A DNA stretch of 63,058 nucleotides, counting the filler, from Folioceros fuciformis (lineage: Eukaryota), in NCBI GenBank assembly GCA_049999805.1. It is 7 parts of 7 records of this genome, joined end to end, with 100 filler letters (N's around TTAATTAATTAA, not from the genome) between each part and the next. Parts side by side here need not be neighbours in the genome. Positions count along the whole stretch, not along the records: positions 1 to 11,561 come from JBNGIO010006475.1; 6 more parts are not named here. One strand, 5' to 3'. This document shows, one piece after another, positions 1-48,613 of this stretch (position 1 is its first letter; every line of letters begins with the position of its first letter). The notes beneath the pieces are model-generated. The model was not told the origin of the DNA and did no database searches. It saw only the letters and a program-made list of their open reading frames with translations. The translations under genes and the position numbers were made by a program.

Positions 1-11
1 TGTTCAGCAAG

Positions 12-347
12 ATGCCGAGGAGAGGGCCATCAGCACGTGCGCCTAGAAGGAGGGTGTTTGTAGAAGGGGTACCAACCCCCACGTTGAGGACAGACTTCGT
101 GTGCCCAAGTTGTCAGGAAGGTAAGGATTCGCCTATCCCGAGGTCAAGACGCGCAGTCTCTCCCATCACCCTCAGGCGCAGTGCTAGCCCGGCTCCCAGA
201 ATCTGCAAACCCTCTTCGGATGTTCTGGACAGCCTTATGCTCAGCATCAAGCAATTGCATCTGACTTGCGAGACCCATCAGTGCGCTAGGCGTTCTCATA
301 TGGCTTCTCTTCAAGCAGCGCGCCGCCAGTCAGTGGTTGATTACTGA
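12..347 (+). CDS. ORF0, extra 111-aa basic protein upstream of gag (CPSC motif)
   Basis: Homologous to 42871-43296 (APRRRV.EG, RT.F.C.S, DVL..L...I.QL.L.C, ARRS) at the same position in the element. Confidence 0.7.
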   Translation: MPRRGPSARAPRRRVFVEGVPTPTLRTDFVCPSCQEGKDSPIPRSRRAVSPITLRRSASPAPRICKPSSDVLDSLMLSIKQLHLTCETHQCARRSHMASLQAARRQSVVDY

Positions 348-3300
348 CAAGCTTCTCAGTTCTCATGTCATGCCGCCCAGGAGACACCCGGCGGCTCCAT
401 CTGATGATGAATTTGATCTCGATGCTGGAGGTATAGTGCATCCCGACGAGGAGGAGACACCGTACCAAGCTGAAGACGAAGGGGCTGAGCAGCAGACTTA
501 CTACCAGCCTCCATCTGTCCAGCGAACACCTTTCAACTTTGATTTTGGCCTGAGTCGAGATCAAACAGGTGGTGCGCGTGAAGGACGACAACGGGAAGGA
601 TTTGGGCTATACAATTCCCGAAGGACCAGCCCTGAACAGCAGACAGAAGATCAGCCTGCGCAGCAGACACGCAGGGAACCCTTCATCTCGACTGGGTCAG
701 TTCGCACGACATCTGCCACTACTACTGCTGGTACTGTCGCTGCCTCAATCACATCCACTTCAACCATGGCAGCTCTTCCTCAACAACCCCTGAAGATTGA
801 GTTCAGGGATAAGGATCGTTTCAATGGGAACGACTACAACACTTGGTCACTGAGGTTGACACAGATGTTTGAGGAGCAAGAGCTTATGTCCGTGGTGGAT
901 GGGAGTGAGAGATGCCCTGCAGCTACAAACACCAATGCTGCCGACGTTCTCGACTGGAAACGAAAGGACAGGAGAGCACGTTCCATTCTCATTACCTCAC
1001 TGGATAGGAATATGATTCCTCACACTCTTGGTGCTAACACCTCTGCAGCTGTGTGGCATAGTTTCTCTCAGATTTACAAGGACAAGAGCAATGCTTCCCA
1101 AGTCTTTGCACACAGGGACTTTTATGGGCTGAGAATGAAGGACAGTGATTCTGTCGAGTCCTATATTAACCGCTTCAGAACTGCACGTGCAACTTTGGCA
1201 TATTGTGGTACTATTCTTACCGAAGAACAAGCGGGGACCAGTCTGCTGGCTTCGTTACCTCCAAGCTACAGCCACTTCATGAGCTCGCAGTTTGCCCGAG
1301 CATCGTCTGCAGCAGCTGGAGGTCAGCCTGCTATAACCTTGGATGAGTTGATTGGAGCCCTTCTAGCTGAGGAGCGATCCAAGGGTTTCCACAAAGGAGG
1401 CAAAGGAGATTCTCAGCAACACTCGAGAGTTTTATTTTCGGGTCGAGGCAGAGGTAGTTTCCGTGGACGTGGCCGTGGAGGACAAGGACGTGGTGGTTAC
1501 CCCACAGCCAAGCAACCGAACCTACAGAGGAAAATCTTCACCTGCAATTGGTGCAAGATCCCGGGTCATTTTGAGAAGGACTGTAGGAAGAAACGTGCTG
1601 GGGAACCCCGTAAGGAAGGCACTTCCCATGAGTCCAACTTGACCACTTCAAAAGCTACAAACTCGGCTAAGTCCCCTTCCATCCTCGCAGTCTGTCTATC
1701 TTCTGTTCATATTCAGGCAGATATGTGGTTCTTGGATTCAGGTGCCACTAGCCACATTTGTTATGATAGGAGAGCTTTCAGTAATTTCACGTCTACTCCT
1801 GACAGCCTGCAGTTTGTTTTGCTAGGGGACGACAGTGGTCTGGCCATCAAGGGTTCAGGTTCAGTCAGTATTGAGTTACCTAGTTCAGAGGTCATGACTC
1901 TGTCAGGTGTGCTTTTTGTTCCAGCAATGACCAAGAATCTTATGTCCGTCATGAAGTTAGCTGAGGAGCATTCTTGTAGGATTTGTTTTGACCACACTGG
2001 TTGCTCCATATCCCGTATACCTGGTTGGGATGACATCTTTTCTGGCACTCCCTTTAATGACCTGTACCTTTTGAATGTGCGGACTTTACCTAATCAGCCC
2101 ACTGTCAACGTTAGCCAGTCTCCGTCTCTGTCTCCTACGCAGTTGTGGCACTGTCGTCTTGGTCATGTCAACTTTCAGAAGCTTTCACGTTTGGTGAATA
2201 ACACAGTCTTCCGTGATCAGTTGTCCTTTCCTTTTGATAGCCATGCCTTTTGTGACTCCTGCCAGGTTAGTAAGGCAGTATCACAGCCCTTCCGAGATCA
2301 GAACCTGTCACGAGCCACATCCCTCTTGCATACAGTCCATAGTGATTTGTGTGGTCCCATGTCCACAGCGTCTTTTGGAGGTGCCCTTTATTTCCTTACC
2401 TTCATCGACGAATGGAGTCGTTATTGCACAGTTTATGTACTTCACAGCAAGGGAGACACCTTCAACTGCTTTCAAGACTACGTGGCCATGGCACAGCGAC
2501 AGACTGGTTGCAAGCTTAAGATATTTCGATCTGACAATGGAGGAGAGTATATCAGTCATGCCTTCTCCGAGTTTTGTTCGACAGAGGGAGTTATTCATCA
2601 ATTCACGGTCCCTTATACCCCTGCTCAGAACTCTTTTGCTGAACGCAAGAATAGAACACTCCAGGAGGCTGCCCTTTCTAGCTTGTCTTTTGCTGGTTTG
2701 ACTCGTGGATATTGGGCAGAGGCATTAGTGGCCGCCAACTATGTGCAGAATCGGCTCCCCACTAAGGAGCTCGGTCTCATCACACCTTACGAGAGGTGGA
2801 CAGGCAAGAAACCTCGTATCACTCATTTACGGATTTTTGGCAGCCCTGCATATGCCTTGGTTCCTTCCCAACTGCGCAGCAAGCTGGATCCCAAGGCCGT
2901 TCGCCGCATCTTTGTGGGTTATGCTGAAGACGTTAAGGGCTACAAACTCTTTGACCCGAGTACCCGTCAACTTTCCTATTCTCGTAGTGTCATCTTTCAT
3001 GAACATGCCTTGTTACGACGCCATGATAGTTTGCTAGCCCCCTCTTCTATTCTGCCCCCTGCCACCATCCAAGGAGTAGATGATGCCCTCGATTTTACCA
3101 CTGACCAGGATGCTGACGTTGCCATCTTTGATTTTGATGATATACCTGTAGGTCCTCCTACTTCAGCTTCACGGGGGCCACACATACAGTCACCTTCCAG
3201 CAGCAGTCACACAGACTATTCCCACAGTTCAGATGAGTTACCTCCACCTCGTGTTCTTGCTGATCCTGTGCCTGTTGTTGAACCTGCAATAGTAGACCCT

Positions 3301-5093
3301 CCTGTCGTAGACCCTCTTGTAGATACCTTGGTAGATACTCCTACTGTTACTGAGCAAGAACCTCCTCCTGTTGTTGTAGATGAGCCCTCTTCTCCAGTCC
3401 TTCGTAGATCTTCTCGTCCCGTCCTCCTAGGCGTGAATGGAAAGAACCTCCTTTTGCCGCAGGTGTAGCTTTCACACCCCCTAAACTCAACTTCAACACT
3501 CATGAGCCTTTGACCTACCTAGAAGCCACTTCTGGTCCGGAAGCAGATTTCTGGAAGGAGTCTATTCAATCTGAATATGACTCCCTCATCACCAATGGTA
3601 CTTGGAAGCTGGTTGATCTGCCTGAAGGACGGAAGCCAGTTTCCTGCAAGTGGGTCTTCAAGAAAAAGCTCAACACCGATGGGAGTGTGGGTCGTTACAA
3701 ATCTCGGCTTGTGGCAAAGGGTTACAGTCAGGTAGCTGGACTGGACTATAATGAGACGTTTGCTCCAGTGGTTAAATCCACATCTGTAAGGATACTGCTA
3801 TCTCTAGCTGCTCATTATGGTTTGCATGTTCATCAACTTGATGTGAAAACCGCTTTCCTTAATGGCACCTTAGAAGAAGAGATCTATATGCAGCAGCCTG
3901 AGGGTTTTGTGATAGACGAGCAGAAAGTATGCTTGTTACTTAAAACGTTATATGGTCTCAAACAATCAAGCCGAGCTTGGAATGAGACGTTTCATGCGTT
4001 GTTGATTGAGCTTGGATTTACCTGTTTGGATGCTGACAATACTGTATACATACTTTGGGATGGTGATGACTTTCTTATCCTGTCAGTTTATGTGGACGAC
4101 AATTTTCTCTTTAGCACTTCTCTTGGTTTGATGGCTAGGATTAAGAGTGCCCTTCTTTCACATTTTGATATGACTGATTTAGGGCAGCTCAGTTTTTCCT
4201 TGGGTGTCCAGTTCCAGTTCTCCGAGGACAGACACACTGTCGAGCTTCATCAGGAGCATTTTGTGACGCAGCTACTTCAGCGTTTCAATATGGGAGAGGC
4301 TCGACCAGTTTCAACTCCTATGTCCACCAGTAAGAAGTTATCAAAGGAGGACTGTCCCACTACTCAGGAAGAGAAGGATTTGATGGCTACTCGTCCCTAC
4401 AGGCAGGCAGTAGGTAGTCTTTTGTATTTAGCAGCCTGGACTAGGCTTGATATTTCAAGGGCAGTTAGTAATGTTTCGCAGTTCTTAGAAAATCCGGGTG
4501 AGGTGCATTGGTCAGCTGTGAAGAGGATATTCCGGTATCTTAAGGGCACGCCCCGTCTTGGTTTGAAGTATACTAAGCAACCTGCTGGTTTGGAGCTTGT
4601 TAGCTATTGTGACGCTGATTGGGCAGGTGACCCTGATTCACGACGAAGCATAGCAGCCTATTGCAATATTTTGGAAGGAGCAGTGGTATCGTGGTCGAGT
4701 AAGAAGCTAACGACCATCTGCTTATCCTCTACTGAAGCAGAGTACGGAGCTCTATCCCAGGCTGCTCGTGAAGTCATATGGATCCGCTCTTTTCTTCGAG
4801 GCCTTCAGCAACTTCCAACAGGAGCTACAAGATTATGGTGTGATAATCAGTCGGCCATTGCCCTTACGAAAAATCCAGTTTTTCATGCCCGTTCTAAGCA
4901 CATTGAAATCACTCACCATTTTATCAGGCAAGCCTATGATACAGGTGAGGTGGATGTAAGGTATGTGCCCACTGGAGACAATGTAGCTGATGTTTTGACT
5001 AAGTCCTTGCCTAAACTGCTGCACTCTAAGCATGTAACTGCAGCGGGACTTAGCCAAATCTCTCCCACTCAAAAGCTAGGAACTGCCCACTAG
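337..5093 (+). CDS. Copia gag-pol with one -1 frameshift at ~3419 (ORFs 337-3468 and 3510-5093; likely start ATG 370, MPPRR)
   Basis: Motifs CNWCKIPGHFEKDC, FLDSGAT, HCRLGH..CDSC, HSDLCGP/SDNGGEY/AERKN, YVDD, DADWAG. After SSR the shifted frame reads RPPRREWKEPPFAAG, matching RPPRHAWSEPPFVAG in A2. Confidence 0.93.
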
Positions 5094-5942
5094 TCTGCTA
5101 TTTTCTGGACAGCATGCTGATAAATTGATGTGGTACCCCTGGTCCTTAATTTTCTTCTTCAGAGTCTGCAGCAGCTCATGCGACTTCTTCAGCTCGTCCA
5201 GGAGTGCTGCAAGTTTGTAGACAACAAGGTCAGGCATGTCAGTTCATAGCATGGACCAGAAGTCAGCAGATCACTAGAGGACAGGTGGATGAAGAAGTCA
5301 CGCACATGTAAGCACTTGTCCTTCTTCGTCAGGGTCGTCGTATCTTCTCCTTTTGCCTTTCACGCTAGCAGAGGGAGCTCCAGCATTTTTCCCAAGTACT
5401 TTGGTAGCCCGCATGAGAATAACCTGATCCTCTTTGCTCAATTTTTCTTTGTCACCTGCCTTGCATGTCAAGCGATATGTGTAATAGTAGTCCAGCTCAT
5501 CTTCCTCCTTGGGCATAGCTCTTAACATTGCAGCTTGGTATTCACTCTTGGACATTCTGCCCTCGAAGGATACCTGGTGAGGTGTGTCATATGGTTGAAC
5601 CTTCTCACCCACTGGAGTCCACCTTTTGAGGTCAACCTTGTTGTAATCCTTCTGAGCTTGCTGTTCAGCTGTCTTGGGTGCGTCCATACTTGTGGCTGGA
5701 TGATCACATATTGTTTGATGAAGCATCCACTGCCTAGGAGTATATTTGGGGGCACGAGCCCATTCTCTGCCGTAGTGAATGCATTCCAGGCCACTCGGGA
5801 CAACCTCACATTTCTTTTCCATCAGTAGATAGCAGTGTTTGTAGCTCAGCAGCCAGAATGCTATGATGCTGATTGCGAACCAAGCCAAGAGGAGAGCAGC
5901 AGCGAGGTTGCAGAGTTCGAAGACTGAACACTGGAGCACCAT
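5076..5942 (-). CDS. Antisense two-exon gene of A1 (exon 1 5942-5306, intron 5305-5207, exon 2 5206-5076; 255 aa): TM helix, C2HC-like finger, C-terminal helix
   Basis: Hydrophobic LAAALLLAWFAISIIAFWLL. Donor T|GTGCGT, CTGAC branch-like site, acceptor TTGCAG|. Exon 2 SLLDELKKSHELLQTLKKKIKDQGYH is conserved in A2. Confidence 0.72.
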
Positions 5943-6184
5943 TGCCTTATAGCGGGGAGAGCAGCGTAACAAGCTGGAATTCAGGAGGACAGCGTGAGCT
6001 GTGAGCTGGATGAGTGCAAGGACTGAGCTTGAGCGTGCGTTGAGGACACGGGATGTGGGCGCAACAACTTAGCCCGTATCCCATTCAAGTGTTTTGTTGG
6101 AGTTCTTGTCTGTACATGAACCCGTTCTAGGGGTTTTATATTCTTCACATACTTTTATATCTGTTCATTGTAACCAAGAGGGAG

Positions 6185-6390
6185 TAATGAAATAGATGTG
6201 TCACCTAAAGTTAAGTTGACTAGATATTAGTGGTTTTATGAACAGTTATAACCACCTACAAATGCTTTGTATATATGTAGAATTTCCCGTGAACAATAAT
6301 AACCGTTTTTTATTCTTCTCTTCCTTGTCCTTGCTTAGCATCGCCGCTTCACACACCTGCTCGTGCCCCTCGCGATCATGAATCGCATTT
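6185..6390 (+). repeat. 3' LTR of A1 (starts TAATG; end approximate)
   Basis: Follows the PPT directly. Its 3' part (GCTCGTGCCCCT...GCATT) matches the A2 LTR. Confidence 0.8.
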
Positions 6391-6442
6391 ATAAGTTCCA
6401 GGCTTCATGGAGACTTGCATGCTCCCACTTGCTAGGCTAGGT

Positions 6443-9400
6443 TTATGTAGGTTGAGAATCTGGACAGCCTTCATGGCTGCCCATACCAAGGCTTTTCATG
6501 TGCCTTTTGTGTATGTCCCTGCTGAGGGACTTAGTAAAGATGTCCGCTGGGTTGTCTGCAATTGGTACATACTCAAGAGCAATCTGGTCTGATTTAACAA
6601 GATCCCTGATGAAATGGTACTCCACTTCCACGTGTTTTTTACGAGAATGAAATACTGGATTCTGTGCCAAGTTCATTGATCCTTGGTTGTCAGTTTTGAT
6701 GGTTGTGCAGGTTGGGAGAGGTTGCCCAAGCTCCTTAAACACCAGCTTACACCAGGCAATCTCCTTAGCAGCAGCGGTAAGGACTCGATACTCAGCTTCT
6801 GTGCTTGAGGTAGCTACGGTAGGTTGTTTCTTGCTGGACCAGCAAATAGGTCCTCTAGCAACCATAACTACATAACCAGATACTGACCTACATGTATCAG
6901 TGTCACCAGCGTAGTCAGAATACGTAAAAACATCCAGCTCAAGATGTGAACCAGGTATGTATCTGAAGTTGAGTCCAACATCTGACGTTCCTTTCAAATA
7001 CCTAACAACTCTTTTAACCCCTGTCTAGTGCAACTGTCCAGGGTTCTCAAGGTACTGAGAAAGTACACTGGTGGCATAGGCAACATCAGGTCGTGTTGTT
7101 TTGGCTGCGTAAATAAGTTTGCCCACACCCTTCCTATAAGGGACTGANNNNNNNNNNNNNNNNNNNNNNNNNNNNNNNNNNNNNNNNNNNNNNNNNNNNN
7201 NNNNNNNNNNNNNNNNNNNNNNNNNNNNNNNNNNNNNNNNNNNNNNNCTCCAACAAGTACCGAGGCTGGGTGAGAGATATAGATTTGTTTTTCCTGTCTC
7301 TCTTGATGAGAACTCCTAGGCAGCTTTGAAGAGCTCCAAGGTTTGTCATTTCAAACTTGGTAGCTAACAACTTGTTGATTTCTGTGATGAATGTAGGGCT
7401 GTTGCAGGACAGAATCAAATCATCAACATAAACTGCAAGGTAGCAAACAATATCTCCAGATCGGTAAATATATAAGCTGCTGTCTGAAATACACTTGATG
7501 AAACCCAACGCGTGCAGCTCTTCATCAAGGACTGCATTCCACTCAAGGGCTGATTGCTTCAGCCCATACAGTGTCTTCTTAAGAAGTAAGACATGATCCT
7601 CTTTACCTTTGACTTCATATCCTGTGGGTTGTTGCATGTAGATATTTGTATCTAGTTTCCCATGTTAAAACGCTGTTTTCACATCAAACATGTCTAACTC
7701 ATAATCATGATATGCTGCCAGGGCACAGATAATCCGAAAGGTGGCAAGCTTCATGACTAGAGCATATGTCTCAAAGTAATCAAGCCCAGGCACTTGTGAA
7801 AAACCATGAGCAACAAGTCGTGCTTTGTATCTATCAAAAGAGCCATCAGCTTTTACCTTGAGCTTGAAAACCCATTTGCAGGATACAACCTTCCGTCCAG
7901 GAGGTAATTTAGCGAGTTCCCATGTTCCATTCTTTATCAAAGAGTCATATTCTGATTGTATAGCCTTTTTCCACTTAGCAACATCAGGACGGCTAAGAGC
8001 TTCTTCATAGGACTGAGGTTCAAGGGGATCCAGAAGAGTAGCTTCATTAGCTGTTGGTTTTCTAAAGTCCTGTGATTGGTAGTAATCAGGAGCTTGTCTA
8101 TCTCTTGTAGGATAACAGCGAGCAGGTGGTAAAGGCTAGATAGGCTGCAAAGGCTGATCAAATTCACCTTCTACATCACTGTCTGGAGGATCAGCAGCAT
8201 CAGCAACTGCATCCTCATCAGAATTTGGAATGGGATCGGGTGGATCAGGTAAAATGTCGGGTGGATAAATAGGATTGACAGCATCAGGAGGAGGTTGCTG
8301 CTGCAAGTTAGCAGGAACATCTAATTCCTCTCCAAGATTGTCTAACACTGGTTCATGCTGTTCTTCCCCCCCTACAGGAGCAACCTCCTCAGGAGCATTG
8401 TCAGGAAAAATGGTAACAGCAGGCAACAAAGAGAAATCAGTGTCCCACTGAGACCCCCCCTCAGTAGGAACAACTCCCACTGGCTGCCAAAAGTGAGCTT
8501 CATCAAAGGTCACGCTGCGGGCATATATAACTTTATTATGAGTTACGTTTTATAGCTTATAAGCTTTAATACCTTCAGTATACCCAAGCATAAGAAGCTT
8601 GAGAGCCTTAGCAGCTAACTTAGATTGTTTGGCTGTTGGAATGAAAGCATAGGCAATACAACCAAAGGTTCGAAGATGAAGAATGGCTGGCTTCCGACCA
8701 TAGAAGGCTTCATATGGAGTCTGTCCAGGGACAGCAGTTGTAGGCAACCTGTTGCGGAGATACACAGCTGTCATAAGGGCTTCAGCCCAATAGGATAAAG
8801 GCATTGAAGCTTGATGGAGCATGGAGGAAACCATCTCCTGCAGAGTCAAATTAAGGCGCTCAACAACACCATTTTGTTGAGGTGTGTACACAACTGTGAG
8901 TTGTCTGCCAATGCCTTCTTCTCTACAAAATGTCTAAACTCATTGGAGATGAATTCTGCACCATTATCAGAATGGAGTGTCTCGAGCGGCTTGCCAGTGC
9001 ACCGTTCTACAAGTTTCAGGTAATCCTTAAACAGAGAAAAACATTCATGCTTAGCCTTCAAGATGTAAGCCATAACAAATCTGGTTTTGTCATCTGTGAA
9101 GGTAAGGAAATAGCGGCCTCCTCCAATTGAAGGCTGAGACAGAGGCCCACATATGTCAGTGTGCACAAGTTCAAGAACATCATAGGCTCTATGAGGTGTC
9201 TTGTTCTTGAAGGCTGCCTGGTGGCGTTTAGATATGACACACGCCTCACATAAGGGTAAGGGCGGCAAGCTGCCAATTTTTCCATCACTGTATAGGTCAC
9301 TAACAGCAAGTTTCTGCAACTTAGAGTTGTGAGGATGACCTAATCTGTTGTGCCATAACATGGCTTTAGTTTCCTGCTCAACGACTATTTTAGATGAAGC

Positions 9401-11561: not shown

Positions 11562-11661
11562 NNNNNNNNNNNNNNNNNNNNNNNNNNNNNNNNNNNNNNN
11601 NNNNNTTAATTAATTAANNNNNNNNNNNNNNNNNNNNNNNNNNNNNNNNNNNNNNNNNNNN
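11562..11661. other. Artificial contig linker N44-TTAATTAATTAA-N44 (also 22236-22335, 42670-42769, 49059-49158, 53863-53962, 60743-60842)
   Basis: The same 100-nt spacer with stops in all six frames occurs six times. Confidence 0.97.
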
Positions 11662-11773: not shown

Positions 11774-12223
11774 ATGGCAGTCCGGATCGACGCTGCCCTC
11801 GCTTATATCCTGGCAGCCCTCTTTGCAATCACACATCTTTCGATCGTTGTTGTCACAAAGATGCAAGGCGGGCAGCTGTATGCGAGCAAGGCGAGCAGTA
11901 GCAGCAAACGGAGAGCCAGGAGGAAGACGGAGAGCAGATCTGAATCCAGCTGTCAGTCCAGTGCCCAAGAGCCTGAGATCGTGATTGAGGGGGACGAGCA
12001 TCGCTTGAGTCTTGGGCAGTACCTCACCATCATGGGGTACCGAGTCGAGTTGAACATCTCCATGAGCTGGAAGAGCCCAGCATCAACTGTTGAAGATGGG
12101 GCGGGCGAACTCCCGCCATGGACGGAGGAGGAGATAGAGCGGGAAGCTGGCCTGGTCGCGTGCCTCAGGGAGGCTGTGAAACTCCTGGCCCAGCTCAAGG
12201 AAGACGGCGAATATGGAAGTTGA
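11774..12223 (+). CDS. Antisense ORF of C1 (149 aa): N-terminal TM helix, Ser/Arg-rich linker, conserved C-terminal domain
   Basis: Hydrophobic AALAYILAALFAITHLSIVVV. GQYLTIMGYRVELNISM and GLVACLREAVKLL match ORF 25001-25405. Lies between pol and the PPT. Confidence 0.68.
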   Translation: MAVRIDAALAYILAALFAITHLSIVVVTKMQGGQLYASKASSSSKRRARRKTESRSESSCQSSAQEPEIVIEGDEHRLSLGQYLTIMGYRVELNISMSWKSPASTVEDGAGELPPWTEEEIEREAGLVACLREAVKLLAQLKEDGEYGS

Positions 12224-12454
12224 AAATGTCAATCAGCGAGGCGATAAGGTAGACGTCGAGCTTCATCCGCCTGCTGGTGACCATCACTGCTGTGCTGAGC
12301 ATACTGTACATGTCTGCTAACGATCCCACTGTCTCGCGGACTGCAGGTTTCACTGTCTGGCTGCAAGGAGGCAATTCGTTTTATCATGCATATCAGGGAG
12401 CAGGGCTCCCACCCCCCCCCCCCCCTTTTAACCACCAGATAAGTGCTTGGTTGC

Positions 12455-15400
12455 TCAGCCCAGCTCGTCGTTGAAGTATCCTGAAAACTCCTGTAGACCA
12501 AGTCCTGCCATATGCACGTAATGTTTATACTTGGGCAAGGCCTTAGTCAGGATGTCTGCAGTATTTTCTTCAGTACTCACGTAGCCGACTTTTACAACCC
12601 CTCGCTCAACGACATTCCTGATATAATGATGCTGGATCTCGATATGTTTTGTTCTTGCGTGAAAACGAGAATTTGCAACCAGGGCAAGTGCTGACATATT
12701 ATCACACAGGAGTGGAGTTGCTGCTGTCTGCTGTTGCCCAAGGTCTTGCAGAAAGGTACGTTCCCACTCTGCCTCTTTAGAGGCGTCCGTTAAGCTTTTA
12801 TATTCGGCTTCTGTGGATGATAAAGCTATTGATGTTTGCTTTTTGCAGCTCCAGCTTACCACCGCAGATGCTAATAGAAAGCAGTATGTAGATAGGCTTT
12901 TACGGCTGTCGTTATCGGATGCCCAATCTGCATCCGTAAACCCTCTTAGAGTAAGTTGCCCTTGTCCGCTCCTTTTATAAGCTAGTCCATAATACTGGGT
13001 CCCTTTTAGGTATCTATAAACACGTTTAGCAGCTACCCAGTGTGCTTTACCAGGTTTCTCTAGAAATTGTGACAGGGTACTGACAGAGTATTGTATATCT
13101 GGACGAGTCCAGTTTGCGACAAACAGCAGACTACCTACTGCATGACGGTAAGGGATATCTGCCATTTCCTTTTGTTCTTCAGCAGACTGGGGACACTGCA
13201 GGCTGGTAAGCTTGGCTCCTAAGGCAGATGGGGTAGATGCAGGGCGTGCCTCATCAAGTTTGAATTTGTTAAGGAGTTGCTGTATATACTTGTATTGGTG
13301 TATGAACAGCAGACCTTCAGATCTGACCCGGAGCAACTGGATGCCTAAACAGAATTTCAATTCCCCTATATCTTTCATTTCAAATTTGCTGCTTAACATT
13401 GTTTTGACTTCTGCTAACAGATCCTGGTTGTTTGTCGCCAGGATAACGTCATCAACGTATAAGGCGAGCACAACATAGGCATCACCTTTAGACAGTCTAT
13501 AAACATTGCTGTCTGCAGCATTTTGGATAAAGGAAACACTCAGCAAGTACTCATGAATGGTAAGGTACCACACTCTGCCACTTTGTTTCAAGCCGTAAAT
13601 TGTTTTGAGCAGCTTGAGGACTTTTCTAGGATGTGAAGGGTCTTCATAACCCTCTGGTTGTGTCATGTATAGGTCTTCATCGAGAGATCCGTATAAGAAG
13701 GCCGTGCATACGTCCATTTGGTGCAAGTCCAGATCATGCTCTGCGGCAAGTGCCAGTATTACCCTAATTGATTGAGATCTGACCACTGGGGAGAACGTTT
13801 CTTGGTAATCCAGGCCTTCAATTTGAGTGAAGCCTCTGGCTACCAAGCGTGCCTTGTATCGCGCTATCTCCCCTTTTGCGTTGAGCTTTAATCTAAACAC
13901 CCATTTACATGATATAGGCTTTCGACCAGGAGGGAGATCAACCAATCTCCAGGTTTGATTCTTTACCAAAGAGTTATATTCGTCTTCAATTGCAATTCTC
14001 CATTTTTCAGATTCTGGGCTTGAGCAAGCTTCCTTGTAGGATTGTGGCTCAAGATGTGAAGTCATAGATGCTGAATGGACAGCCTCAGCATAGGAAGTCC
14101 TAAAATCGATTGACTGATACCGTGGTTCTGTCCATTGATCTGGAGGTGGACGATATCTGGTTGAGCGCCTCAATGGTTCGGGTTCAGGTACAACTTGCAC
14201 AGGCTCATGAACATCAGCTATTTCTGCATGATCTTGGTCTCCATTCAGAAAGTCATACTCATCTCGTGCATTGTGATGTGCAGCATCTGCTCCCTCTAAA
14301 CCTAGCTCATCATGTTCAGCAACCAGGGGTTCACCATCAGGTGGTTCTGGATTATTGCCTGCTAATGGTATCTGTTGTACAGGTTGTGGATGCTGTACAG
14401 GTGGTGGATCATGAAGCACAATCTCAAAATCTTCTTCTTCTGCAGAAGCATCTTGTGGAAATTGTGATTCAGAAGTTTCTCCTTCAATGAGGTTAGTATC
14501 TCCCTCGGAAGCTAAATGAGACTGCAGTCCTGGTGTTACAGGCTTCACAGGTTCGATAAAAGTGACGGAACGGGCTAACACAATCTGTTGGGTTGCAGGA
14601 TTGTAAAGTTTGTAGGCCTTCACTTGTTCACTGTATCCGACAAAAATAAGAGCTTGGGCTCTCGGATCCAGTTTCTTTCTTTTCTCCTCTGGAATGAGAG
14701 CAAAAGCTCGTGAGCCAAAGACACGGAGATGGAGAAGGCTGGGTTTCCGATTCCAGAAAGCTTCAAAAGGCGTTTTCTTAGGAACTGAGTGAGTGAAGAG
14801 CCTGTTAAGCACATATGTGGCTGTAACGATGGCTTCAGCCCAGTATTTTTGTGGAAGGCCGGCCCATAACAACATGCTGCGTGTCATAGAGAGTAAGGTC
14901 TGATTCTTACGCTCTGCTACACCGTTCTGTTGCGGCGTATAAGGTACAGTGAGCTGCCTTTGAATGCCATGTTGCTGAAGTAGTTCATCAAAGGCATGAT
15001 TGATAAATTCAGTACCATTGTCTGTACGAAGAAACTTGAGAAGATGACCTGTTTGACGCTGAACAGTCACAAGCCATTCGCAAAATGTTTCAAAGGTATC
15101 ACTTTTCTGTTGTATAGGAAAAGTCCAAGTATATCTCGAGAAGTCGTCTGTTAGGCAGAGATAGTAATGAGATCCTCCTACAGAGGGGACATGTATCTTT
15201 CCTGAAATATCCGCGTGCACTAATTCGAGTATTTGTGTTGCTCGAAAGGTAGCCAAGGATGGAAAAGGCTGTTGCTTCTGTTTGGCAACAATACACGCCT
15301 CACAAGACGGAAGATCCTTAAAACAACGAGGTAGGGGCTCAAGATGACATTGCTGAAGAGACATGTCAACAAGTTTGTGTTTATTGACGTGTCCTAACCG

Positions 15401-16888
15401 TGCGTGCCACAGAACAGCCAGTTTTTGTGTATCCTTAGAAACCAGACTGGCCTGATGGCGCATAGGAAATATGTCCAACCTGTACAGGTCGTTGTCTGGT
15501 ATACCTTTGAACAAAAGGATCTGGTCATCATCCTTCTTGTAGAAGGAACATGTGTCATCCACGACGTGGAGTTTATAACATTTGAGTTGCATCAGCTTGC
15601 TCAGCGACATAAGGTTTTTAGCCATGGTCGGTACGTACAGCACATCAGCAAGAGTCAAAATGGAGCCATCATGTAAGGTAAACTTACAACTTCCATGTCC
15701 TCTGATGTGTAAACTGGTCTTGTTTTGTTCATCACCAAGCAACACCTTGTCAGCAGAATTGCTAAGATGTAGTGTGAAGAACTGATCCTTCTTAGTGCAT
15801 ATGTGCGAGGTAGCCCCAGAATCAAGGTACCAGCTGCCCTCTTCATACCATGCACTAGAGAGACAAATCGTAAGGATCTTCACCATAGGTTTGGTGTCAC
15901 CTGGTTTTGTCTCTTTGATAGCAACTGTAGCACTGCTTTTCTGAGTACGCTGAGGTTCTCCTGCCTTCTTTTTCTTGCATTCTCTTGCCCAGTGACCAGC
16001 GATTCCACACCAATTGCAGTTTCCCGGCCTCTTGGGAGATGAAAAAGATGAAGGTTCAGGTCTACCTCCAACCTTGCTTTTGGCTTTCCCTCTGTTGGGT
16101 TTAAAACCTGTCGCCAATGCCTTTTCTGCCTTGTTCCTAGGGACTCCAGCAGAGAGCATGCGGGCCTGCTCTTCTTGATACAAGGCCCCAATCACGTCTT
16201 CAACAGTGATTGTGCTTGTAGAAGAACCAGCAGCACCAGATGGTTTAATGGGCCCATTTTGGGTTGTCACAAAAGCTTGATATGAGGGAGGTAAACTGGA
16301 GAGGAGCTTTGCAACTGCTTGTGTTTCTGGTATTTTCTCACCAGTCAACAAAGTAATCTGAGCTCTAAGACGTCGGAACTTACTGGTATGTGCCGACACT
16401 TTCTCTCCCTCTCTCATACGCAACAAGAAGAACTCTGTTTGCAATGCACACAGAGACATCATGTTCTGCTGCTGATATGTTTTCTCTAGTTGTGCCCAAA
16501 TTGCAGAAGCCTCTGTCAAGGGTTCTATATCTGGCACAAGGTCTGTATCTATTCCGTTTATTAAAAGAGCAACTGCTATTCCATTATGCTGATCCCACTT
16601 AGCAATTTCATCTGCTGTAGGTGCTGGAGTAGTATTGGGATTCGGTTTAGCATATGTTTTGTCAACTATGGACCAAACACTACGAGCCAGCAAAATACTC
16701 TTCATTCTCACACGCCAAGTTTTGTAGTTCTGGCCGTTGAGACGGTCTTTCTCCTTCAAATCTGTTGTGAATACTGGAGAAGTGATAGTAGCCATGTTGT
16801 GTATTTGTGCAGAGAATGGCTGTATGCTCAAAGATTGAAATTGCTGTTCGAGAGATGCTAACAATGCATCCACGGGGTTTGAGGACAT
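12455..16888 (-). CDS. Intact copia gag-pol polyprotein, 1477 aa
   Basis: Motifs CNWCGIAGHWAREC, YLDSGAT, HARLGH..CEAC, HADISG/TDNGTEF/AERKN, YVDD, DADWAS; no stops. Confidence 0.97.
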   Translation of the reverse strand: MSSNPVDALLASLEQQFQSLSIQPFSAQIHNMATITSPVFTTDLKEKDRLNGQNYKTWRVRMKSILLARSVWSIVDKTYAKPNPNTTPAPTADEIAKWDQHNGIAVALLINGIDTDLVPDIEPLTEASAIWAQLEKTYQQQNMMSLCALQTEFFLLRMREGEKVSAHTSKFRRLRAQITLLTGEKIPETQAVAKLLSSLPPSYQAFVTTQNGPIKPSGAAGSSTSTITVEDVIGALYQEEQARMLSAGVPRNKAEKALATGFKPNRGKAKSKVGGRPEPSSFSSPKRPGNCNWCGIAGHWARECKKKKAGEPQRTQKSSATVAIKETKPGDTKPMVKILTICLSSAWYEEGSWYLDSGATSHICTKKDQFFTLHLSNSADKVLLGDEQNKTSLHIRGHGSCKFTLHDGSILTLADVLYVPTMAKNLMSLSKLMQLKCYKLHVVDDTCSFYKKDDDQILLFKGIPDNDLYRLDIFPMRHQASLVSKDTQKLAVLWHARLGHVNKHKLVDMSLQQCHLEPLPRCFKDLPSCEACIVAKQKQQPFPSLATFRATQILELVHADISGKIHVPSVGGSHYYLCLTDDFSRYTWTFPIQQKSDTFETFCEWLVTVQRQTGHLLKFLRTDNGTEFINHAFDELLQQHGIQRQLTVPYTPQQNGVAERKNQTLLSMTRSMLLWAGLPQKYWAEAIVTATYVLNRLFTHSVPKKTPFEAFWNRKPSLLHLRVFGSRAFALIPEEKRKKLDPRAQALIFVGYSEQVKAYKLYNPATQQIVLARSVTFIEPVKPVTPGLQSHLASEGDTNLIEGETSESQFPQDASAEEEDFEIVLHDPPPVQHPQPVQQIPLAGNNPEPPDGEPLVAEHDELGLEGADAAHHNARDEYDFLNGDQDHAEIADVHEPVQVVPEPEPLRRSTRYRPPPDQWTEPRYQSIDFRTSYAEAVHSASMTSHLEPQSYKEACSSPESEKWRIAIEDEYNSLVKNQTWRLVDLPPGRKPISCKWVFRLKLNAKGEIARYKARLVARGFTQIEGLDYQETFSPVVRSQSIRVILALAAEHDLDLHQMDVCTAFLYGSLDEDLYMTQPEGYEDPSHPRKVLKLLKTIYGLKQSGRVWYLTIHEYLLSVSFIQNAADSNVYRLSKGDAYVVLALYVDDVILATNNQDLLAEVKTMLSSKFEMKDIGELKFCLGIQLLRVRSEGLLFIHQYKYIQQLLNKFKLDEARPASTPSALGAKLTSLQCPQSAEEQKEMADIPYRHAVGSLLFVANWTRPDIQYSVSTLSQFLEKPGKAHWVAAKRVYRYLKGTQYYGLAYKRSGQGQLTLRGFTDADWASDNDSRKSLSTYCFLLASAVVSWSCKKQTSIALSSTEAEYKSLTDASKEAEWERTFLQDLGQQQTAATPLLCDNMSALALVANSRFHARTKHIEIQHHYIRNVVERGVVKVGYVSTEENTADILTKALPKYKHYVHMAGLGLQEFSGYFNDELG

Positions 16889-17311
16889 AAGAAACTATCA
16901 AGATGTACAGGAGCTATGGCTCTGACAATCCAGGTAAGTATCTATGTCTCTCTTACAAGGGTGTGTGGCTAACTGGTGTAGCTAACTGACATTTGTGTGT
17001 GAAAGAGACGGGGGGAGTCTTAGTTTGGAAGGCAACGAGTGCTGTGTGCCTGATGCTTTCTAAATTAATTTCCCCTATTAATTTTTAGGTTAGCGTTTCG
17101 GAAGAGCACATGTTTACATCAAAAAACCAGAACCCTAACTGCCATGCCACCTCCCCCTTTTTGAACAGGTGCATCTGTTGGCTGACAAATGGCATGCAGG
17201 GCAAGACTGAAGGACGAGAGGTCACGACAATGCATGCACCTCTTCGTATCTGGCACCAAGATTGTGCCTGTGCCTGGCGCTCCAGGCTCCCTCGCAGCGG
17301 AAGCTGGAAAT

Positions 17312-22091: not shown

Positions 22092-22335
22092 AAAAGGGTT
22101 AATAGTGGTATGGTTTGGTTTTCTTTTTCAACTTATTTTCCCTAATTTTCCTTGATTTTCTGGTCATTTTTCCTATTTTTCTTTGTGTTAATTAGGTTAA
22201 TTGACCAGGAAATAGTTGGTTTGGTTATAAGAGTGNNNNNNNNNNNNNNNNNNNNNNNNNNNNNNNNNNNNNNNNNNNNTTAATTAATTAANNNNNNNNN
22301 NNNNNNNNNNNNNNNNNNNNNNNNNNNNNNNNNNN

Positions 22336-27245: not shown

Positions 27246-27829
27246 TTTTAACACCAACCATGCTGTCAGCAACTAGGTGCAAGCACACCATGATCTCACC
27301 TTGAAGCCCCAAGCTGGGCGTCCAATCTGTGCATGAAGCTGGGCGACCCAGCATGCGAATACGTAAGTGGCACACAAATATCTGATTCATTATCAGAGAA
27401 AGTCCATATCACCACATGTGGTCGAGGAAGCCTGCCACGGCAATCTCGCTTTGAGCGTTCTTCCTTCTTTCAGGCTGTCACACTTTTCATATACTAGTAG
27501 CCAATACTGTTGCCATGGACAGTAGACGAGACGAGGAAAGGAGGAAGAAGAGTTCGTACATATTTGGTGGGTGTTGAATTAATGCTGTGCGTGAAGATAA
27601 ATAGGAAGTCTGGGATTCCAAAGCAAATGGAATCTAGGCTGAATCTCTCATTCAGCGTCAAGCACTTTCCACAGCGGGGAAAATACCTACTTCGATCCTC
27701 GCTGTTTCAATCCAGAGGGGCAAGGAAGAAAACAGAGTACGTGTGCCTGTCGAGGTTCCCTGGCCCTCTTCACCTGTAATTGGATTGAGAATCGAAGGGT
27801 GCTAATCCCTCGAGCCGTGCTAGCAACAA

Positions 27830-27989
27830 TGATAATAAGTAAAAGCTTGTTGTAAACATTGAATGAATTAATTAAATACAAAAATGTGTATGTTTAAATT
27901 CTTACGGAAGTGCCTGTTCACTTTAATCTAACTAGCAGTAGGTTATAACAGGTTAATCTGTGTTAGGATATCTATTATAACCCTTAGCA
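27830..27989 (-). repeat. 3' LTR of element F
   Basis: TG...CA termini; direct repeat of 34765-34923. Confidence 0.88.
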
Positions 27990-28168: not shown

Positions 28169-28651
28169 ATGGAGCCATTTATGATTGTCTTTATATGCGT
28201 GCTCACCACTCTTCTAACACGCAGAGTTGAAGTGGCGCTGATCAACAAGATGGCGCCGACCAGGAATCGCGTTTTGCCTTGCCAAGAGCAACCTCCTGTG
28301 CACCAACCTAGAATAGGCCATCCAAGCTCAAGTCTGATGAAGACCGAAGATATTGGAGAGTCCTCGCTTCCAGATTCATAGCGACGACCGACTCTGGCTG
28401 ACAAGAACATGTTTAGTCACCTACACACTGTTCTGAAGAAGTGCGATGAGTTGGGAGAGGCCCTACAGGAATCAAGCTGCAAACTGTATGAGTTGTAAGA
28501 GTTGATATCTCCGAGGCCTGATCCTAAGGACCTTAACCATCCTGTGACAGAGATCGAGTGTCAGCACTTGGTGAAGGAGCTAGTCCTGATGGGTTACGTT
28601 GAAGAGGTTGACGGTGGAAAACCTTACAGCCCCACTCACATTTACTGGTAA
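28169..28651 (+). pseudogene. Antisense ORF of element F (hydrophobic N-terminus, two internal stops, ends on a GTAAGT donor)
   Basis: MEPFMIVFICVLTTLL. The frame continues through a TAG and a TAA to ...SPTHIYW, with donor TG|GTAAGT at 28648. Confidence 0.55.
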
Positions 28652-33214: not shown

Positions 33215-34764
33215 TTGTGCAATAACAACAGGGAGAACAGGTGCGGGAGGAGCAACGATAGAGGAAAATTGAGAAGTTAGAGATTGCAAAAATGACGCCT
33301 CTATTTTTGGGTATGTGTCAGGATCACTATTTGTCTCTTCAAAGAGAAGTGAGAGACCTGATATACAGAAAATATCTATGCATTCATGCAGAGAATACGT
33401 AGACGCATAAAATGTTTGCAGGCTATAAACTAATAAAAAAACAAATCAGAATTGAAACACCACCACGAAATGACATGGAGATTCGAAACCTTAAGTAAGT
33501 GAGCCCTATAAACACCAAACGTGCCCTAACTTACAAGTTTAAAGATATGACCAGTTGTATGTTCATGACAGGTGTACACAATCTATGAGCAATGTGCCTA
33601 CGTGTACATGACAACCAACTGTCAGTCATGCGCAAGGCGCCTGTTGGTGGCTGGCTGCAGACAGCGCCTGGAGTGGTGAGCTCTGTCCACCTCCAGCTGC
33701 AGCACGCCTCTCACCAATCTAATCAAGCAGCCTTTGTAGCATCACGCTCACGAATCGGAAGCAACAACGTTAGTAAGTAAAGGGCAGCTTGAGAATCCAT
33801 CACCGAGAGTCTTGGATCTGAAACTCTGAGAAAACGCGCTATTCTCTAAATAGTCACAGTTTGCACTTGAGAAGTCTCAGATTGCAAACGCAGATCCTCC
33901 GTGAGAGGGGCAATTGTTAAACAAGTAAATATTAGTTGTTAGTACATTACCTATACTCTTAGGGTTGTACCTTAGGTAGTTAGGTTTATCATAGCAGTTA
34001 CAACTGCTAGTGCCTAAGGGCATATGTATAGTGAACCTTGTCCTTAAATAACTAACTCTTTTGTGTGCATGCTTATGGACCAATTCATGCAGTACAATGT
34101 TTTCAGCAATAATTTGAATTGCTGAATCATTTTAAAGGGTGAGGTCTGATCTTGTTCTGAACAACAAAAGCTAAGTGTCTCGAATGGAACCATCCCTTGT
34201 TGAACGAGTCACTTTCAGGATCAAATCTTCATCTTCACAGGGTGACAACACTCTCGATGGTCGTCTTGCTAATCTTCGTCTTGAGCTTGGATGCAAATTT
34301 GCACAACAGATGCAGGAACGCTAATTCCTTTGTTCACCACAAGATATCTCTAATTTTGAGATACTATAGGGATGAACTCCTTGCGTGAGATCTGTCTAAA
34401 GATTCTCCTTGAAGAATCCTCAAGGTATCTGTTTGTAGTAGAGGACAATTCAGATTTAAACTCCCCTACGTACGGAACATGAGGCCTATTTTTTAGACCT
34501 ACGCGTCATCCTTGCTGCTCAGATGGGACCAACATAGTCTATTATGTAAAATGATCCCTCCATAGCTGGACTCATCAAATGCTATCTAGTGGACATTCCA
34601 ACATTGCTCAACATGCATAAATGAATGCACACTAAACTATGTTAAAAGACACCCTGTCTCATCTAGAGTACAGCATTTGCTCTGTTTTATAAAGTAGCCT
34701 AAATCTAGCCTAAATCTATGTACATATGAGCAGCATGGATCAAAGAGCCTGGGCTCTGATACCA

Positions 34765-34923
34765 GGATAATAAGCGGAAGCTTGTTGTAAACATTGGACG
34801 AATTAATTAAATGCAAAATTTTATATGTTTAAATACTTACTAAAGTTTTTGTTCACTTTAACCTAACTAACAGTAGGTTATAACAGGTTAATCTGTGTTA
34901 GATATCTATTATAACCCTTAATA
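34765..34923 (-). repeat. 5' LTR of element F
   Basis: Adjacent to the PBS; homologous to 27830-27989. Confidence 0.85.
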
Positions 34924-41790: not shown

Positions 41791-42816
41791 TCCCTCACAG
41801 ATTTTGACACGACGACAAGGAAAGACATCGTGACCATGTTGCAACGGACTTGGGGGTTCACCCAACAGCATCCCACCGGTAGACAAGTGCCACGCAAGAT
41901 ACTTGGCATGCTCTTTCCTCATCCTGGCCAATCCAATGGCATTTACCTTGATACCACACATCGCCTTACGCCACGTCGTGCCATGCCATGCCATGCCCAT
42001 CCTTGGGGCCACCTTGCTAGCCACACAAGCAACCACCTCCATTAAAACCGTGGTTGTTTTCCGACCTTGACGCCTTGGGTGAGGCCTCCGGAGGCTAAAC
42101 AGGTCAGCCAATAACTTCAACTACATTTACAATCAACATGATAAACGCACACAAATTTATGTCAAGTCCAATGGACCTTGTCTTGGGCAACTTGCTTTCC
42201 GCATTCGGCAGAAACTACACATTGAGGATATGCAGCCTATCCAACAATTGAGGACAGGTCTAGGCTTCAAGGATTACATTATTAAAAAGGAGTTGGGGAT
42301 TCCATCCACCAAAAGGAGGAACAGCCACGAAAAGAGACGAAGGCCGAAACATACTAGCTTCTTCAAATATTATTTTTGATAACTACTTACCTACTACCAC
42401 ATGTGCTGAAGTCCGTGGGCCTATACTTGCATTTGTTTTGAAAAATTGCATTCGCCAGGGCCTACAGTTGTCCTGTTTTGAAAGTCAAAAACTACATTTG
42501 TGAAGCCTGCAGTTGGACTAGTCTCTTTCTTTGAAAAACTGCATTCGCCACACTTACATTCGTCCTTGGTCAAAAAGACTACATAGGCCAACACCCTTTG
42601 CAGATCGATGGAGCATTTGTCCTTGTTTTAAAATATTGCATTTATCATACCTACATTTGTCCTTGCTTTNNNNNNNNNNNNNNNNNNNNNNNNNNNNNNN
42701 NNNNNNNNNNNNNTTAATTAATTAANNNNNNNNNNNNNNNNNNNNNNNNNNNNNNNNNNNNNNNNNNNNTCTTGCCACCCGCACGCTCGTGCCCCTCCGC
42801 ATCCTGGATTGCATTA

Positions 42817-42829
42817 TGGTATCAGAGCC
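42817..42829 (+). promoter_or_regulatory. Primer binding site, tRNA-iMet type
   Basis: TGGTATCAGAGCC directly after the LTR; also at 17963, 20567, 34752 and 54241. Confidence 0.95.
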
Positions 42830-42870
42830 AGATTAATAGCCGTACCAGCGTCCATGAGTGGTATGATACG

Positions 42871-43296
42871 ATGCCTAAGTGTGGAGGAGCCTTAGGCGCA
42901 CCTAGAAGGAGAGTCATCCTAGAAGGAGAAGACTCGTCCTTCCCGAGGACAAGCTTTAGATGTACAAGTGCCACAGATGGTGAATCTACTGTACGCAGGC
43001 AATCTTCTCGTCCTCATAGGCGCAGTGTCGTGAGCCCTGTTTTTAGTCCTCGCGTGGGCTCACCCGTAAGGCCGTCCACACCCTGCATCTCGGAAAGACG
43101 CCGTCCAGATCATCAAGCCAAGGTGAATGAACTCCTTGCTGCCAGCGCACAGATTCGCGTTCTGCAAGATGTTTTGGAGTGTCTTACCGCTGGCATCAAT
43201 CAGCTCTTCTTGATCTGTCAAAGCCCCCGAAGCGCTCGGCGTTCTACGTTTGCTGTTCTTAGAGTTGCAAGCCGCGTGAGCGGCACTCCTTTCTGA
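42871..43296 (+). CDS. ORF0 of A2 (141 aa)
   Basis: Homolog of 12-347; ends 20 nt before the gag ATG. Confidence 0.7.
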   Translation: MPKCGGALGAPRRRVILEGEDSSFPRTSFRCTSATDGESTVRRQSSRPHRRSVVSPVFSPRVGSPVRPSTPCISERRRPDHQAKVNELLAASAQIRVLQDVLECLTAGINQLFLICQSPRSARRSTFAVLRVASRVSGTPF

Positions 43297-43316
43297 TATT
43301 TGTTTGTCCTAATGTC

Positions 43317-47984: not shown

Positions 47985-48004
47985 ACAGTCAGTCTTATCC
48001 ATGC

Positions 48005-48613
48005 CTATATCGTTACATGATAGCCACCATCTCTTATTTTCTTTTTCAGCGTCTGCATGAGTTCCTCTGTTTTCTAGAGTTCGTCCAGCAGAGCTGTTAT
48101 CATCACAAGCATAGAGGTTAGATAGTTGTAAACAGGCATGGAGGGACAAGTCCGTCAAACAGGATGGCAGGTAGGATGAAGAAGTCACTCACATGTAAGC
48201 TCCTGACCATCCTCACTGGGGTCGTCGTATTTTATTCTTTTTTTTATTTTTTTTCGCTTCTGTTTTTTCCCTTCAGAGGGAGCATTCTCACTCTTGTCAT
48301 AGACTTTGTTCCAGTCTTTCAGTTGCTGCTCCTCTCGCGTCTTAGCTGCATCAAAGTCAGTTGCTGGGTGTTCGCACACCATCCGATGGAGAGTCCACTG
48401 CCTAGCGGAGTATTTAGATGCAGGAATCCATTCCCTACCACAGTGAACACACTCGATGCCTCTTGAGGCATTCTCCCTCCTTGACTTATCCATCAGAATA
48501 CAGCAGTGTTTGCAATCAAGTAGCTTGGTAGCCAGCAGTATGATAAGGAACCAGGCCAGCAGGAGGACAGCGGCGAGGTTACACAGCTCAGATGTGGAAG
48601 TTTGGAGCGCCAT
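48005..48613 (-). CDS. Antisense two-exon gene of A2 (exon 1 48613-48193, intron 48192-48094, exon 2 from 48093; premature TAG at 48074-48076)
   Basis: TM LAAVLLLAWFLIILLATKLL, CKHC, CVHC-x17-H-x3-C. Donor GTGAGT, branch CTAAC, acceptor ACAG. Exon 2 reads SLLDEL*KTEELMQTLKKKIRDGGYH. Confidence 0.72.

Follow-up and report, generated by a model that had tools for sequence, protein, structure and literature searches.

A putative two-exon antisense gene between pol and the polypurine tract of a Ty1/copia retrotransposon family in Folioceros fuciformis

Can a Ty1/copia retrotransposon carry a spliced protein-coding gene on the strand opposite its own genome? The question is raised by two diverged copies of one element family, A1 and A2, in a stretch of Folioceros fuciformis DNA of 63,058 nucleotides (nt), filler included (assembly GCA_049999805.1), referred to below as the window. 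Each copy carries an open reading frame (ORF) antisense to the element, between pol and a motif resembling a polypurine tract (PPT). A first-pass annotation of this DNA proposed that the frame is interrupted by a 99-nt intron and continues in a short second exon. Our comparison of the two sequences suggests that the A1/A2 family probably has an antisense accessory gene of two exons, constrained by purifying selection about as strongly as gag. The parts of the candidate gene are as follows.

5306-5942, minus strand: A1 exon 1, with ATG at 5942 and last base T5306; 212 complete codons and then one base of the codon that the candidate intron splits, inside an open frame spanning 5298-5972
5207-5305, minus strand: A1 candidate intron, 99 nt, with a GTGCGT donor, CTGAC 27 nt before the AG, and a TTGCAG acceptor
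5076-5206, minus strand: A1 exon 2, 42 codons past the split codon, with TAG at 5078-5076
48193-48613, minus strand: A2 exon 1, with ATG at 48613 and last base T48193; 140 codons plus one base, inside an open frame spanning 48185-48691
48094-48192, minus strand: A2 candidate intron, 99 nt, with a GTGAGT donor, CTAAC 28 nt before the AG, and a TAACAG acceptor
48005-48093, minus strand: A2 exon 2, degenerate, with in-frame TAG codons at 48076-48074 (the seventh codon) and 48007-48005

The antisense ORF is present in both of the family copies in the window, and the GT donors, 99-nt intervals, CAG acceptors, and CTGAC/CTAAC sites annotated in the first pass were all recovered in A1 and A2. GT-AG introns follow consensus forms at the donor, the branch-like site, and the acceptor. 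Both copies have a GT donor, an AG acceptor, a branch-like CTRAY 27-28 nt before the AG (expected range 18-40 nt), and a phase-1 join that restores the frame carrying the coding signature described below. Joining the final T of exon 1 to the first two bases past the AG gives Ser, followed by LLDEL.... Two GTs overlap at the donor; only the first (T/GTRNGT, the slash marking the exon boundary), joined to the CAG, keeps the conserved frame, and from the second, 4 nt downstream, the frame runs into a stop. The interval is rich in pyrimidines, with C+T of 61% in A1 and 62% in A2 versus 36-44% in the exons (44% in A1 exon 1). The last 18 nt of A1 exon 2 overlap the end of pol on the opposite strand. 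When both exons were used in a tblastn search of the whole window, only A1 and A2 were retrieved (E values of 1.5e-34 and 5.6e-10), the next matches having E of at least 0.5.

Without splicing, the frame of both copies meets a TGA two codons past the GT, and further in-frame stops bring the count within the interval to four in A1, the number originally annotated, and two in A2. The TGA is probably ancestral because it is found in both copies. Since the exon 2 frame is constrained in spite of this shared TGA, exon 2 appears to have been translated despite that stop, and read-through is an unlikely route because the interval has four (A1) and two (A2) in-frame stops. The interval had also been described as diverged past its head, and it is: the first 19 nt differ at one position between A1 and A2, whereas the remainder, at any rate beyond nt 22, is at chance-level identity except for TCCATGC at interval nt 50-56. 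This string (5250-5256 in A1, 48137-48143 in A2, minus strand) lies between flanks at chance identity, and its ATG is in frame with exon 2.

To examine coding, synonymous and non-synonymous differences between A1 and A2 (expressed as proportions, pS and pN) were counted in all six frames. In the frame of the antisense gene, the counts are as follows.

Exon 1 codons 1-43: pS 0.65, pN 0.24, 0 stops
Exon 1 codons 44-103: pS 0.84, pN 0.26, 0 stops
Exon 1 last 14 codons: pS 0.64, pN 0.146, 0 stops
Exon 2, 24-25 codons: pS about 1.0, pN 0.13-0.145, with one stop codon (A2 TAG) excluded from the count
Differences at codon positions 1, 2, and 3, exon 1 codons 44-103: 16, 14, and 38 (p 1e-4)
Differences at codon positions 1, 2, and 3, exon 2 (25 codons): 5, 2, and 17 (binomial p 2e-4)
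Differences by position, interval past the conserved head: 16, 16, and 17 (p 0.47, identity 29%)

Pooled over exon 1 codons 1-103, pS is 0.754 and pN is 0.251. The other frames of exon 1 contain 1-9 stops, versus none in the frame of the antisense gene, and in the other frames pS does not exceed pN, except in the mirror frame, which shares wobble positions with the antisense gene. Stops in this mirror frame number 1-7 in each exon 1 block and, in exon 2, three over the two copies, all in A2; the frame is in phase with pol in A2 and out of phase in A1. Because pol stops at position 5093 (A1) or 47984 (A2) and the mirror frame is out of phase in A1, exon 2 is not explained by sense-strand coding or by an extension of pol. 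The claim that protein similarity resumes at the acceptor stands over 25 codons, with one correction: the first dot of the first-pass motif SLLDEL.K masks an in-frame TAG in A2, and a second TAG closes A2 exon 2. Both the protein similarity and the wobble bias start at the AG. These data support a coding signature that is confined to the antisense frame (with the mirror frame sharing its wobble positions), halts at the GT, and resumes at the AG in the phase expected of a GT-AG splice.

The same counts bear on whether the conservation is non-coding: the sense genome could contain a cis-acting RNA or DNA element here, or the ORF could have arisen by chance. This explanation is very unlikely and is largely refuted by the coding-signature tests: the differences have three-base periodicity (p 1e-4 and 2e-4), and A1 contains no stop over 212 codons. 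Rfam gave 0 matches, and RNA folding around the intron is no better than that of shuffled sequences (z of -0.16 and +0.24). What such an explanation does accommodate is the first 19-24 nt of the interval, which are conserved without coding, so that some non-coding constraint exists; pyrimidine-rich antisense strands near a PPT may also tend toward hydrophobic open frames.

The conserved head is part of a block that spans the donor.

5287-5313, minus strand: conserved donor block, in which A1 and A2 agree at 26 of 27 nt

This block ties for the best 27-nt segment of the whole alignment of the elements, which is about 6 kb long, and is the only one outside gag-pol among the 27 segments that score at least 24/27. 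Its pattern has two matches in the window and none in shuffles. Conservation extends 19-24 nt into the interval, more than a donor alone requires.

The ATG codons within the interval suggest another arrangement, in which two separate antisense ORFs are used without splicing, ORF-A ending at the TGA and ORF-B starting at an in-frame ATG in the interval (53 codons in A1). An in-frame ATG-CCT had been annotated in both intervals, and it is in frame in both; its position is not conserved, falling at interval nt 53 in A2 versus nt 68 in A1. TCCATGC is kept at the same place in both copies, and its ATG is open into exon 2 in A2, but in A1 the ATG at nt 53 is closed by a TGA after one codon and the usable ATG lies 15 nt farther on. 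The 10-15 codons from the ATG to the AG lack both protein similarity and position-3 bias, and neither internal ATG coincides with the point at which these begin. Since eukaryotic ribosomes find their start codons by scanning, they would be stopped by the many ATGs of a 214-codon ORF before arriving at one placed after it, and ORF-B would therefore need a separate promoter inside exon 1, or else unusual reinitiation. The donor block, the pyrimidine-rich interval, and the CTRAC would be left unexplained. We regard two unspliced ORFs as unlikely.

The strength of the constraint was compared with that on the main coding region of the same copies. For the antisense gene, pN/pS is 0.33 in exon 1 and about 0.15 in exon 2; for gag-pol, it is 0.24 across gag, protease, and integrase and 0.12 across reverse transcriptase (RT) and RNase H. 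Judged against the gag-pol range, the antisense gene has been constrained about as much as gag. Purifying selection, as invoked in the first-pass annotation, holds along the lineages between A1 and A2. The term is overstated for the present copies, given the stops and shorter exon 1 of A2 and a Tyr in A1 at a position where A2 has Cys.

Such damage is what would be expected if a host gene fragment with its intron had been captured in antisense orientation by the ancestor of A1 and A2, had never been used by the element, and were now decaying. Both copies are indeed damaged (stops and a deletion in A2, and the Tyr in place of a CxxC Cys in A1), a captured genomic fragment would bring an intron with it, and LTR (long terminal repeat) elements are known to capture genes (PMC7264820). 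However, synonymous differences between A1 and A2 have nearly reached saturation, against a pN of 0.13-0.25, so the frame was kept through most of the divergence of two retrotransposing lineages. In addition, the protein searches gave no host-like relative, and the same review notes that a captured gene usually occurs as a single copy or a few rather than in lineages that have diverged (PMC7264820). An unused passenger therefore seems a poor explanation, and we give it little credence. Capture as the origin of the sequence is compatible with a functional antisense gene as well; the two accounts part only at the words "without use".

Several observations weigh against a functional two-exon gene. 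The comparison involves two copies of shared ancestry, so the GT, the AG, and the phase amount to one observation, not two. Exon 2 of A2 has two in-frame stops while the A2 gag-pol is intact; since the A2 contig looks like a collapsed multi-copy repeat, these stops may be common in the A2 subfamily, in which exon 2 or the whole gene may be dispensable or supplied in trans. A2 exon 1 is shorter than that of A1 by about 73 codons. In A1, gag-pol is split, the donor GTGCGT is weaker than the GTGAGT of A2, and a Tyr occupies the position of the second Cys of the A2 CxxC, within a C-x2-C ... H-x3-C-x-H cluster. The in-frame ATG in both intervals could independently start the exon 2 frame. Finally, the antisense protein had no relatives or domains in Pfam and the protein collections searched, and its predicted fold is poor (mean pLDDT, the predicted local distance difference test score, of 43).

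With these points taken into account, the two-exon gene remains the reading that we favor, and it can be set out as a sequence of steps. A third gene would lie on the opposite strand of the A1/A2 family, between pol and the PPT, and would be transcribed from the 3′ side, with a promoter in the spacer of about 235 nt or in the 3′ LTR. The antisense pre-mRNA would hold one 99-nt GT-AG intron. Its removal would fuse exon 1, whose product is predicted to combine a hydrophobic helix at the N-terminus with a Cys/His cluster and a basic stretch, to the short exon 2, which would code a conserved amphipathic helix. Unspliced RNA would give a protein ending two codons past the donor. On the sense genomic RNA, the intron would read CT...AC, so that it would not be removed and would be inherited by each new copy. 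Transcription, splicing, translation, and any role of the gene are what we infer from the DNA of two copies. A read alignment at 80% likeness placed 0 of 143,725 records, a result that is neutral as to expression. By analogy with proposals for gypsy antisense ORFs, a regulatory or nucleic-acid-binding accessory protein is a possible role, although a doubtful one.

The conceptual spliced product of A1 is 255 residues long, and the exon 1 proteins of A1 and A2 are 55% identical in alignment. Cys and His residues invariant between the copies are C37, C54, H56, H75, C79, and H81; the basic stretch is KGKRRR in A1 and KKQKRKKIKKRIK in A2, and the conserved exon 2 helix is LLDELKKSHELLQTLKKKIKDQGYH. 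In the AlphaFold model of the A1 product (mean pLDDT 43.1), only the N-terminal hydrophobic helix is confident (residues 11-30, pLDDT 81-85). From these motifs, the protein might be zinc-binding, nuclear, or dimeric. Searches for relatives were negative throughout. Pfam gave 0 families at E 0.01 and, at E 10, a single match, COE1_HLH, with E 0.19. None of 120 candidates from a homologous-protein search was confirmed as a relative, and phmmer found 0 among 1.84 billion representatives at E 0.001. A metagenome scan with the two-sequence alignment produced 206 pattern matches, and a scan of viral contigs 244, with 0 confirmed in either; the donor-block DNA pattern had 0 matches in the viral contigs. 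The best ESM Atlas score was 0.85, below a meaningful level, and the best E in a profile search of the PDB was 0.75. Membership in the TRP28 (PF04195) or SMC-like ORF2 family was considered and ruled out, as Pfam shows no such homology, and a HBZ-type bZIP protein was likewise set aside, with no bZIP match in Pfam.

The setting of the candidate gene is a window crowded with copia-type elements. Three 100-N gaps and six N44-TTAATTAATTAA-N44 linkers, which are spacers with stops in all six frames, show the window to be a chain of separate contigs; because it joins separate contigs, adjacency of elements across linkers is meaningless. The relevant features are as follows.

11562-11661, 22236-22335, 42670-42769, 49059-49158, 53863-53962, and 60743-60842: the six linkers
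1-6391, plus strand: copia element A1, with Pfam domains in copia order; its 5′ LTR and primer binding site (PBS) lie off the window
42770-49058, plus strand: copia element A2, occupying one entire contig
6176-6187, plus strand: PPT-like motif AAGAGGGAGTAA of A1, identical in A2; the probable 3′ LTR then runs to 6391
48851-48862, plus strand: PPT-like motif AAGAGGGAGTAA of A2; the probable 3′ LTR then runs to 49058

By domain order, A1 and A2 are Ty1/copia (Pseudoviridae) LTR retrotransposons, the Pfam order of the host elements being gag, protease barrel, integrase, and RVT_2. In A1, gag-pol is broken into two ORFs in different frames. The first (337-3468) matches Retrotran_gag_2 (1.7e-28), Pol_BBD, gag_pre-integrs, rve, and SH3_retrovirus, and the second (3510-5093) matches RVT_2 (1.5e-77), so that integrase precedes RT; no Pfam model for RNase H matched the A1 ORFs. 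A2 has an intact gag-pol of 1573 codons (43263-47984). Over pol, the two copies are 72-76% identical in DNA (BLAST), and over the whole aligned element they are 70% identical. With pol ending at 5093 (A1) and 47984 (A2), the pol-to-LTR region is about 1.1 kb.

A1 terminates at the 3′ LTR end ...GAATCGCATTTA, which aligns with the LTR end of A2. Of the LTRs of A1 and A2, the window contains both 3′ LTRs and, for A2, the last 47 nt of the 5′ LTR; the LTR starts in both copies are probable positions, as the complete 5′ LTR is absent from the window. The common motif AAGAGGGAGTAA is likely the polypurine tract. The PBS of A2, TGGTATCAGAGC at 42817-42828, lies 3 nt past the LTR end; it has five matches in the window versus 0.21 expected, and we take it to match the 3′ end of initiator tRNA-Met. 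The A2 contig begins and finishes with the same 47 bases of the LTR end (42770-42816 and 49012-49058) and is therefore a collapsed LTR-plus-internal unit. As a collapsed multi-copy repeat, it may be nearer to a population average than to a single insertion.

Further observations concern these elements. A sense ORF lies 5′ of gag in both copies (plus strand; 12-347 in A1, 111 codons; 42871-43296 in A2, 142 codons) and stops shortly ahead of gag, which starts MPPRR; this ORF is the sole stop-free frame in the tested block, with a weak signature (pS 0.64, pN 0.35 over 38 codons). Directly past the A1 LTR end is a minus-strand copia pol fragment (6392-7147, with an ORF at 6443-6997), and because it begins at the LTR end, A1 abuts or sits inside another element. 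A scan of metagenomes based on the C-terminus of A2 pol returned 37 loci, with identity reaching no more than 57% in a short segment and 48% across most of the query, and coding resembling exon 1 or exon 2 was absent from all 37 (best E 1.5 and 0.086). The nearest pol relatives, 34-52% identical, are from oomycetes, an arachnid, flowering plants, and green algae.

Antisense ORFs also occur in other copia elements of the window. Elements C and D are represented by a single copy each and are leads rather than support for the gene proposed for A1 and A2.

59596-60192, minus strand: antisense ORF of element C, from another copia family, with LTRs at 53963-54241 and 60284-60560 that are 97.5% identical
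11774-12223, plus strand: antisense ORF of element D, 149 codons uninterrupted, between the pol stop and the contig end

In element C, AAGTGGGAG stands directly before the LTR start, the antisense ATG at 60192 is 83 nt inside the PPT, and pol ends at 59690. A candidate 63-nt intron (59875-59813; AAG/GTACTT...CTGAC...GCGCAG/A) includes a pyrimidine tract, and its removal would add 73 in-frame codons; none of 32 candidate relatives of the element C exon 1 was confirmed. Element D is a minus-strand copia with gag-pol at 12455-16894, and its antisense product combines a hydrophobic helix at the N-terminus with a KRRARRK stretch and a C-terminus that is acidic and helical. Near the end of element D pol, at about 12419-12432, there are about 14 consecutive C residues. 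A fifth copia-like element, on the minus strand, has LTR-like repeats at 27826-27966 and 34761-34901 (87% identical) and a PBS at 34753; near its 3′ end is a 70-codon antisense ORF (28169-28381, plus strand) with a hydrophobic start followed by RR.

The antisense products of A, C, and D all start with a hydrophobic helix followed by basic residues. Composition alone may favor such frames, given a pyrimidine-rich antisense strand near the PPT. Homology among the products was assessed by Smith-Waterman alignment against 500 shuffles.

A1-C: z 1.88, 24 of 500 shuffles as good
A2-C: z 1.49, 51 of 500 shuffles as good
A1-D: z 0.52, 135 of 500 shuffles as good
A2-D: z 0.71, 109 of 500 shuffles as good
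C-D: z -0.51, 355 of 500 shuffles as good

By this test, there is no significant similarity between the A, C, and D antisense products. Likenesses noted by eye, namely RYD(D/A)P before the donor, L(S)AC(C/S)PE, and LL.QLK..G.Y, were unsupported by the shuffles and were dropped. A tentative generalization is that copia elements of this genome in general carry a third, antisense gene by the PPT, encoding a small protein with an N-terminal hydrophobic helix, and that at least two lineages use a short GT-AG intron (99 nt in A, 63 nt in C); we consider this possible but rather doubtful. If true, spliced antisense accessory genes would form a class so far unrecognised in Pseudoviridae, a parallel to deltaretroviral HBZ and the Tat/Retand antisense ORFs, and antisense orientation would be what lets an intron persist in a retroelement.

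The candidate gene can be placed among known systems by layout and by working. HBZ of human T-cell leukemia virus type 1 (HTLV-1) is a bZIP protein, and splicing links its main exon to a tiny one in the LTR. A1 and A2 resemble HBZ in that a retroelement carries an antisense gene at its 3′ end, with a spliced mRNA (putative in A1 and A2) and an intron invisible to the sense genomic RNA. Unlike in HBZ, the large exon comes first, the short exon would code the C-terminus, and neither bZIP nor another domain was detected; the likeness is one of layout only. HBZ is described as nuclear, with an antisense promoter in the 3′ LTR (PMC7264820, PMC11963269).

The first-pass annotation had placed 3′ antisense ORFs mainly in gypsy elements, and the literature bears this out. 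In the accounts available, antisense ORFs between pol and the 3′ LTR (aORF-3R) are described for Grande of maize (gene23), RIRE2 of rice, Retand of Silene, pvRetro13 of bean, and fungal Boty (PMC7264820, PMC11963269); pvRetro13 and its 14 sister families, 15 bean families in all, are Ty3/gypsy (PMC4093653). The bean survey, as available, lists two copia families with an extra ORF, both sense and env-like (PMC4093653). The gene of A1 and A2 resembles the Tat/Retand aORF-3R in its position between pol and the 3′ LTR, in its antisense orientation, in conservation comparable to that of the element proteins, and in the basic, possibly nuclear protein proposed for gypsy ORFs (PMC7264820, PMC11963269, PMC4093653). 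It differs in that the hosts there are Ty3/gypsy and here Ty1/copia; in that the pol-to-LTR region is reported as 2.9-6.6 kb there (PMC11963269), against about 1.1 kb here; and in that a TRP28 domain is reported for 97% of Retand clusters, whereas the A1/A2 product has no Pfam match. The gene thus resembles gypsy antisense ORFs in working and HBZ in layout and is by sequence a member of neither family.

That no copia equivalent was known had also been suggested. A literature search, in which subscription journals were thinly covered, turned up neither an antisense coding gene nor an antisense intron in any copia element, and a prior report is possible. A review of additional ORFs states, in its available text, that antisense ORF functions are unknown and calls for a search for antisense and spliced transcripts (PMC7264820); the word "intron" is absent from the text available for this review and for the Retand survey (PMC11963269). 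Antisense extra ORFs are, in the sources available, an open problem of LTR retrotransposon biology whose named examples are all Ty3/gypsy. A copia family with such a gene would mean either that such a layout has evolved at least twice or that its origin lies further back than supposed.

Putative host splicing that expresses an extra or downstream frame likens A1 and A2 to Ogre, with its intron between gag-prot and RT, and to the env-like mRNAs of Bagy2 and SIRE-type elements (PMC7264820, PMC6317226); a plant LTR survey, in its available part, gives introns only for Ogre, on the sense strand (PMC6317226). In those elements, the introns lie on the genomic RNA strand, and their inheritance requires partial splicing, whereas an antisense intron escapes this conflict. 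An intron that persists only because it is antisense would have its artificial equivalent in the antisense-intron cassettes with which retrotransposition is scored.

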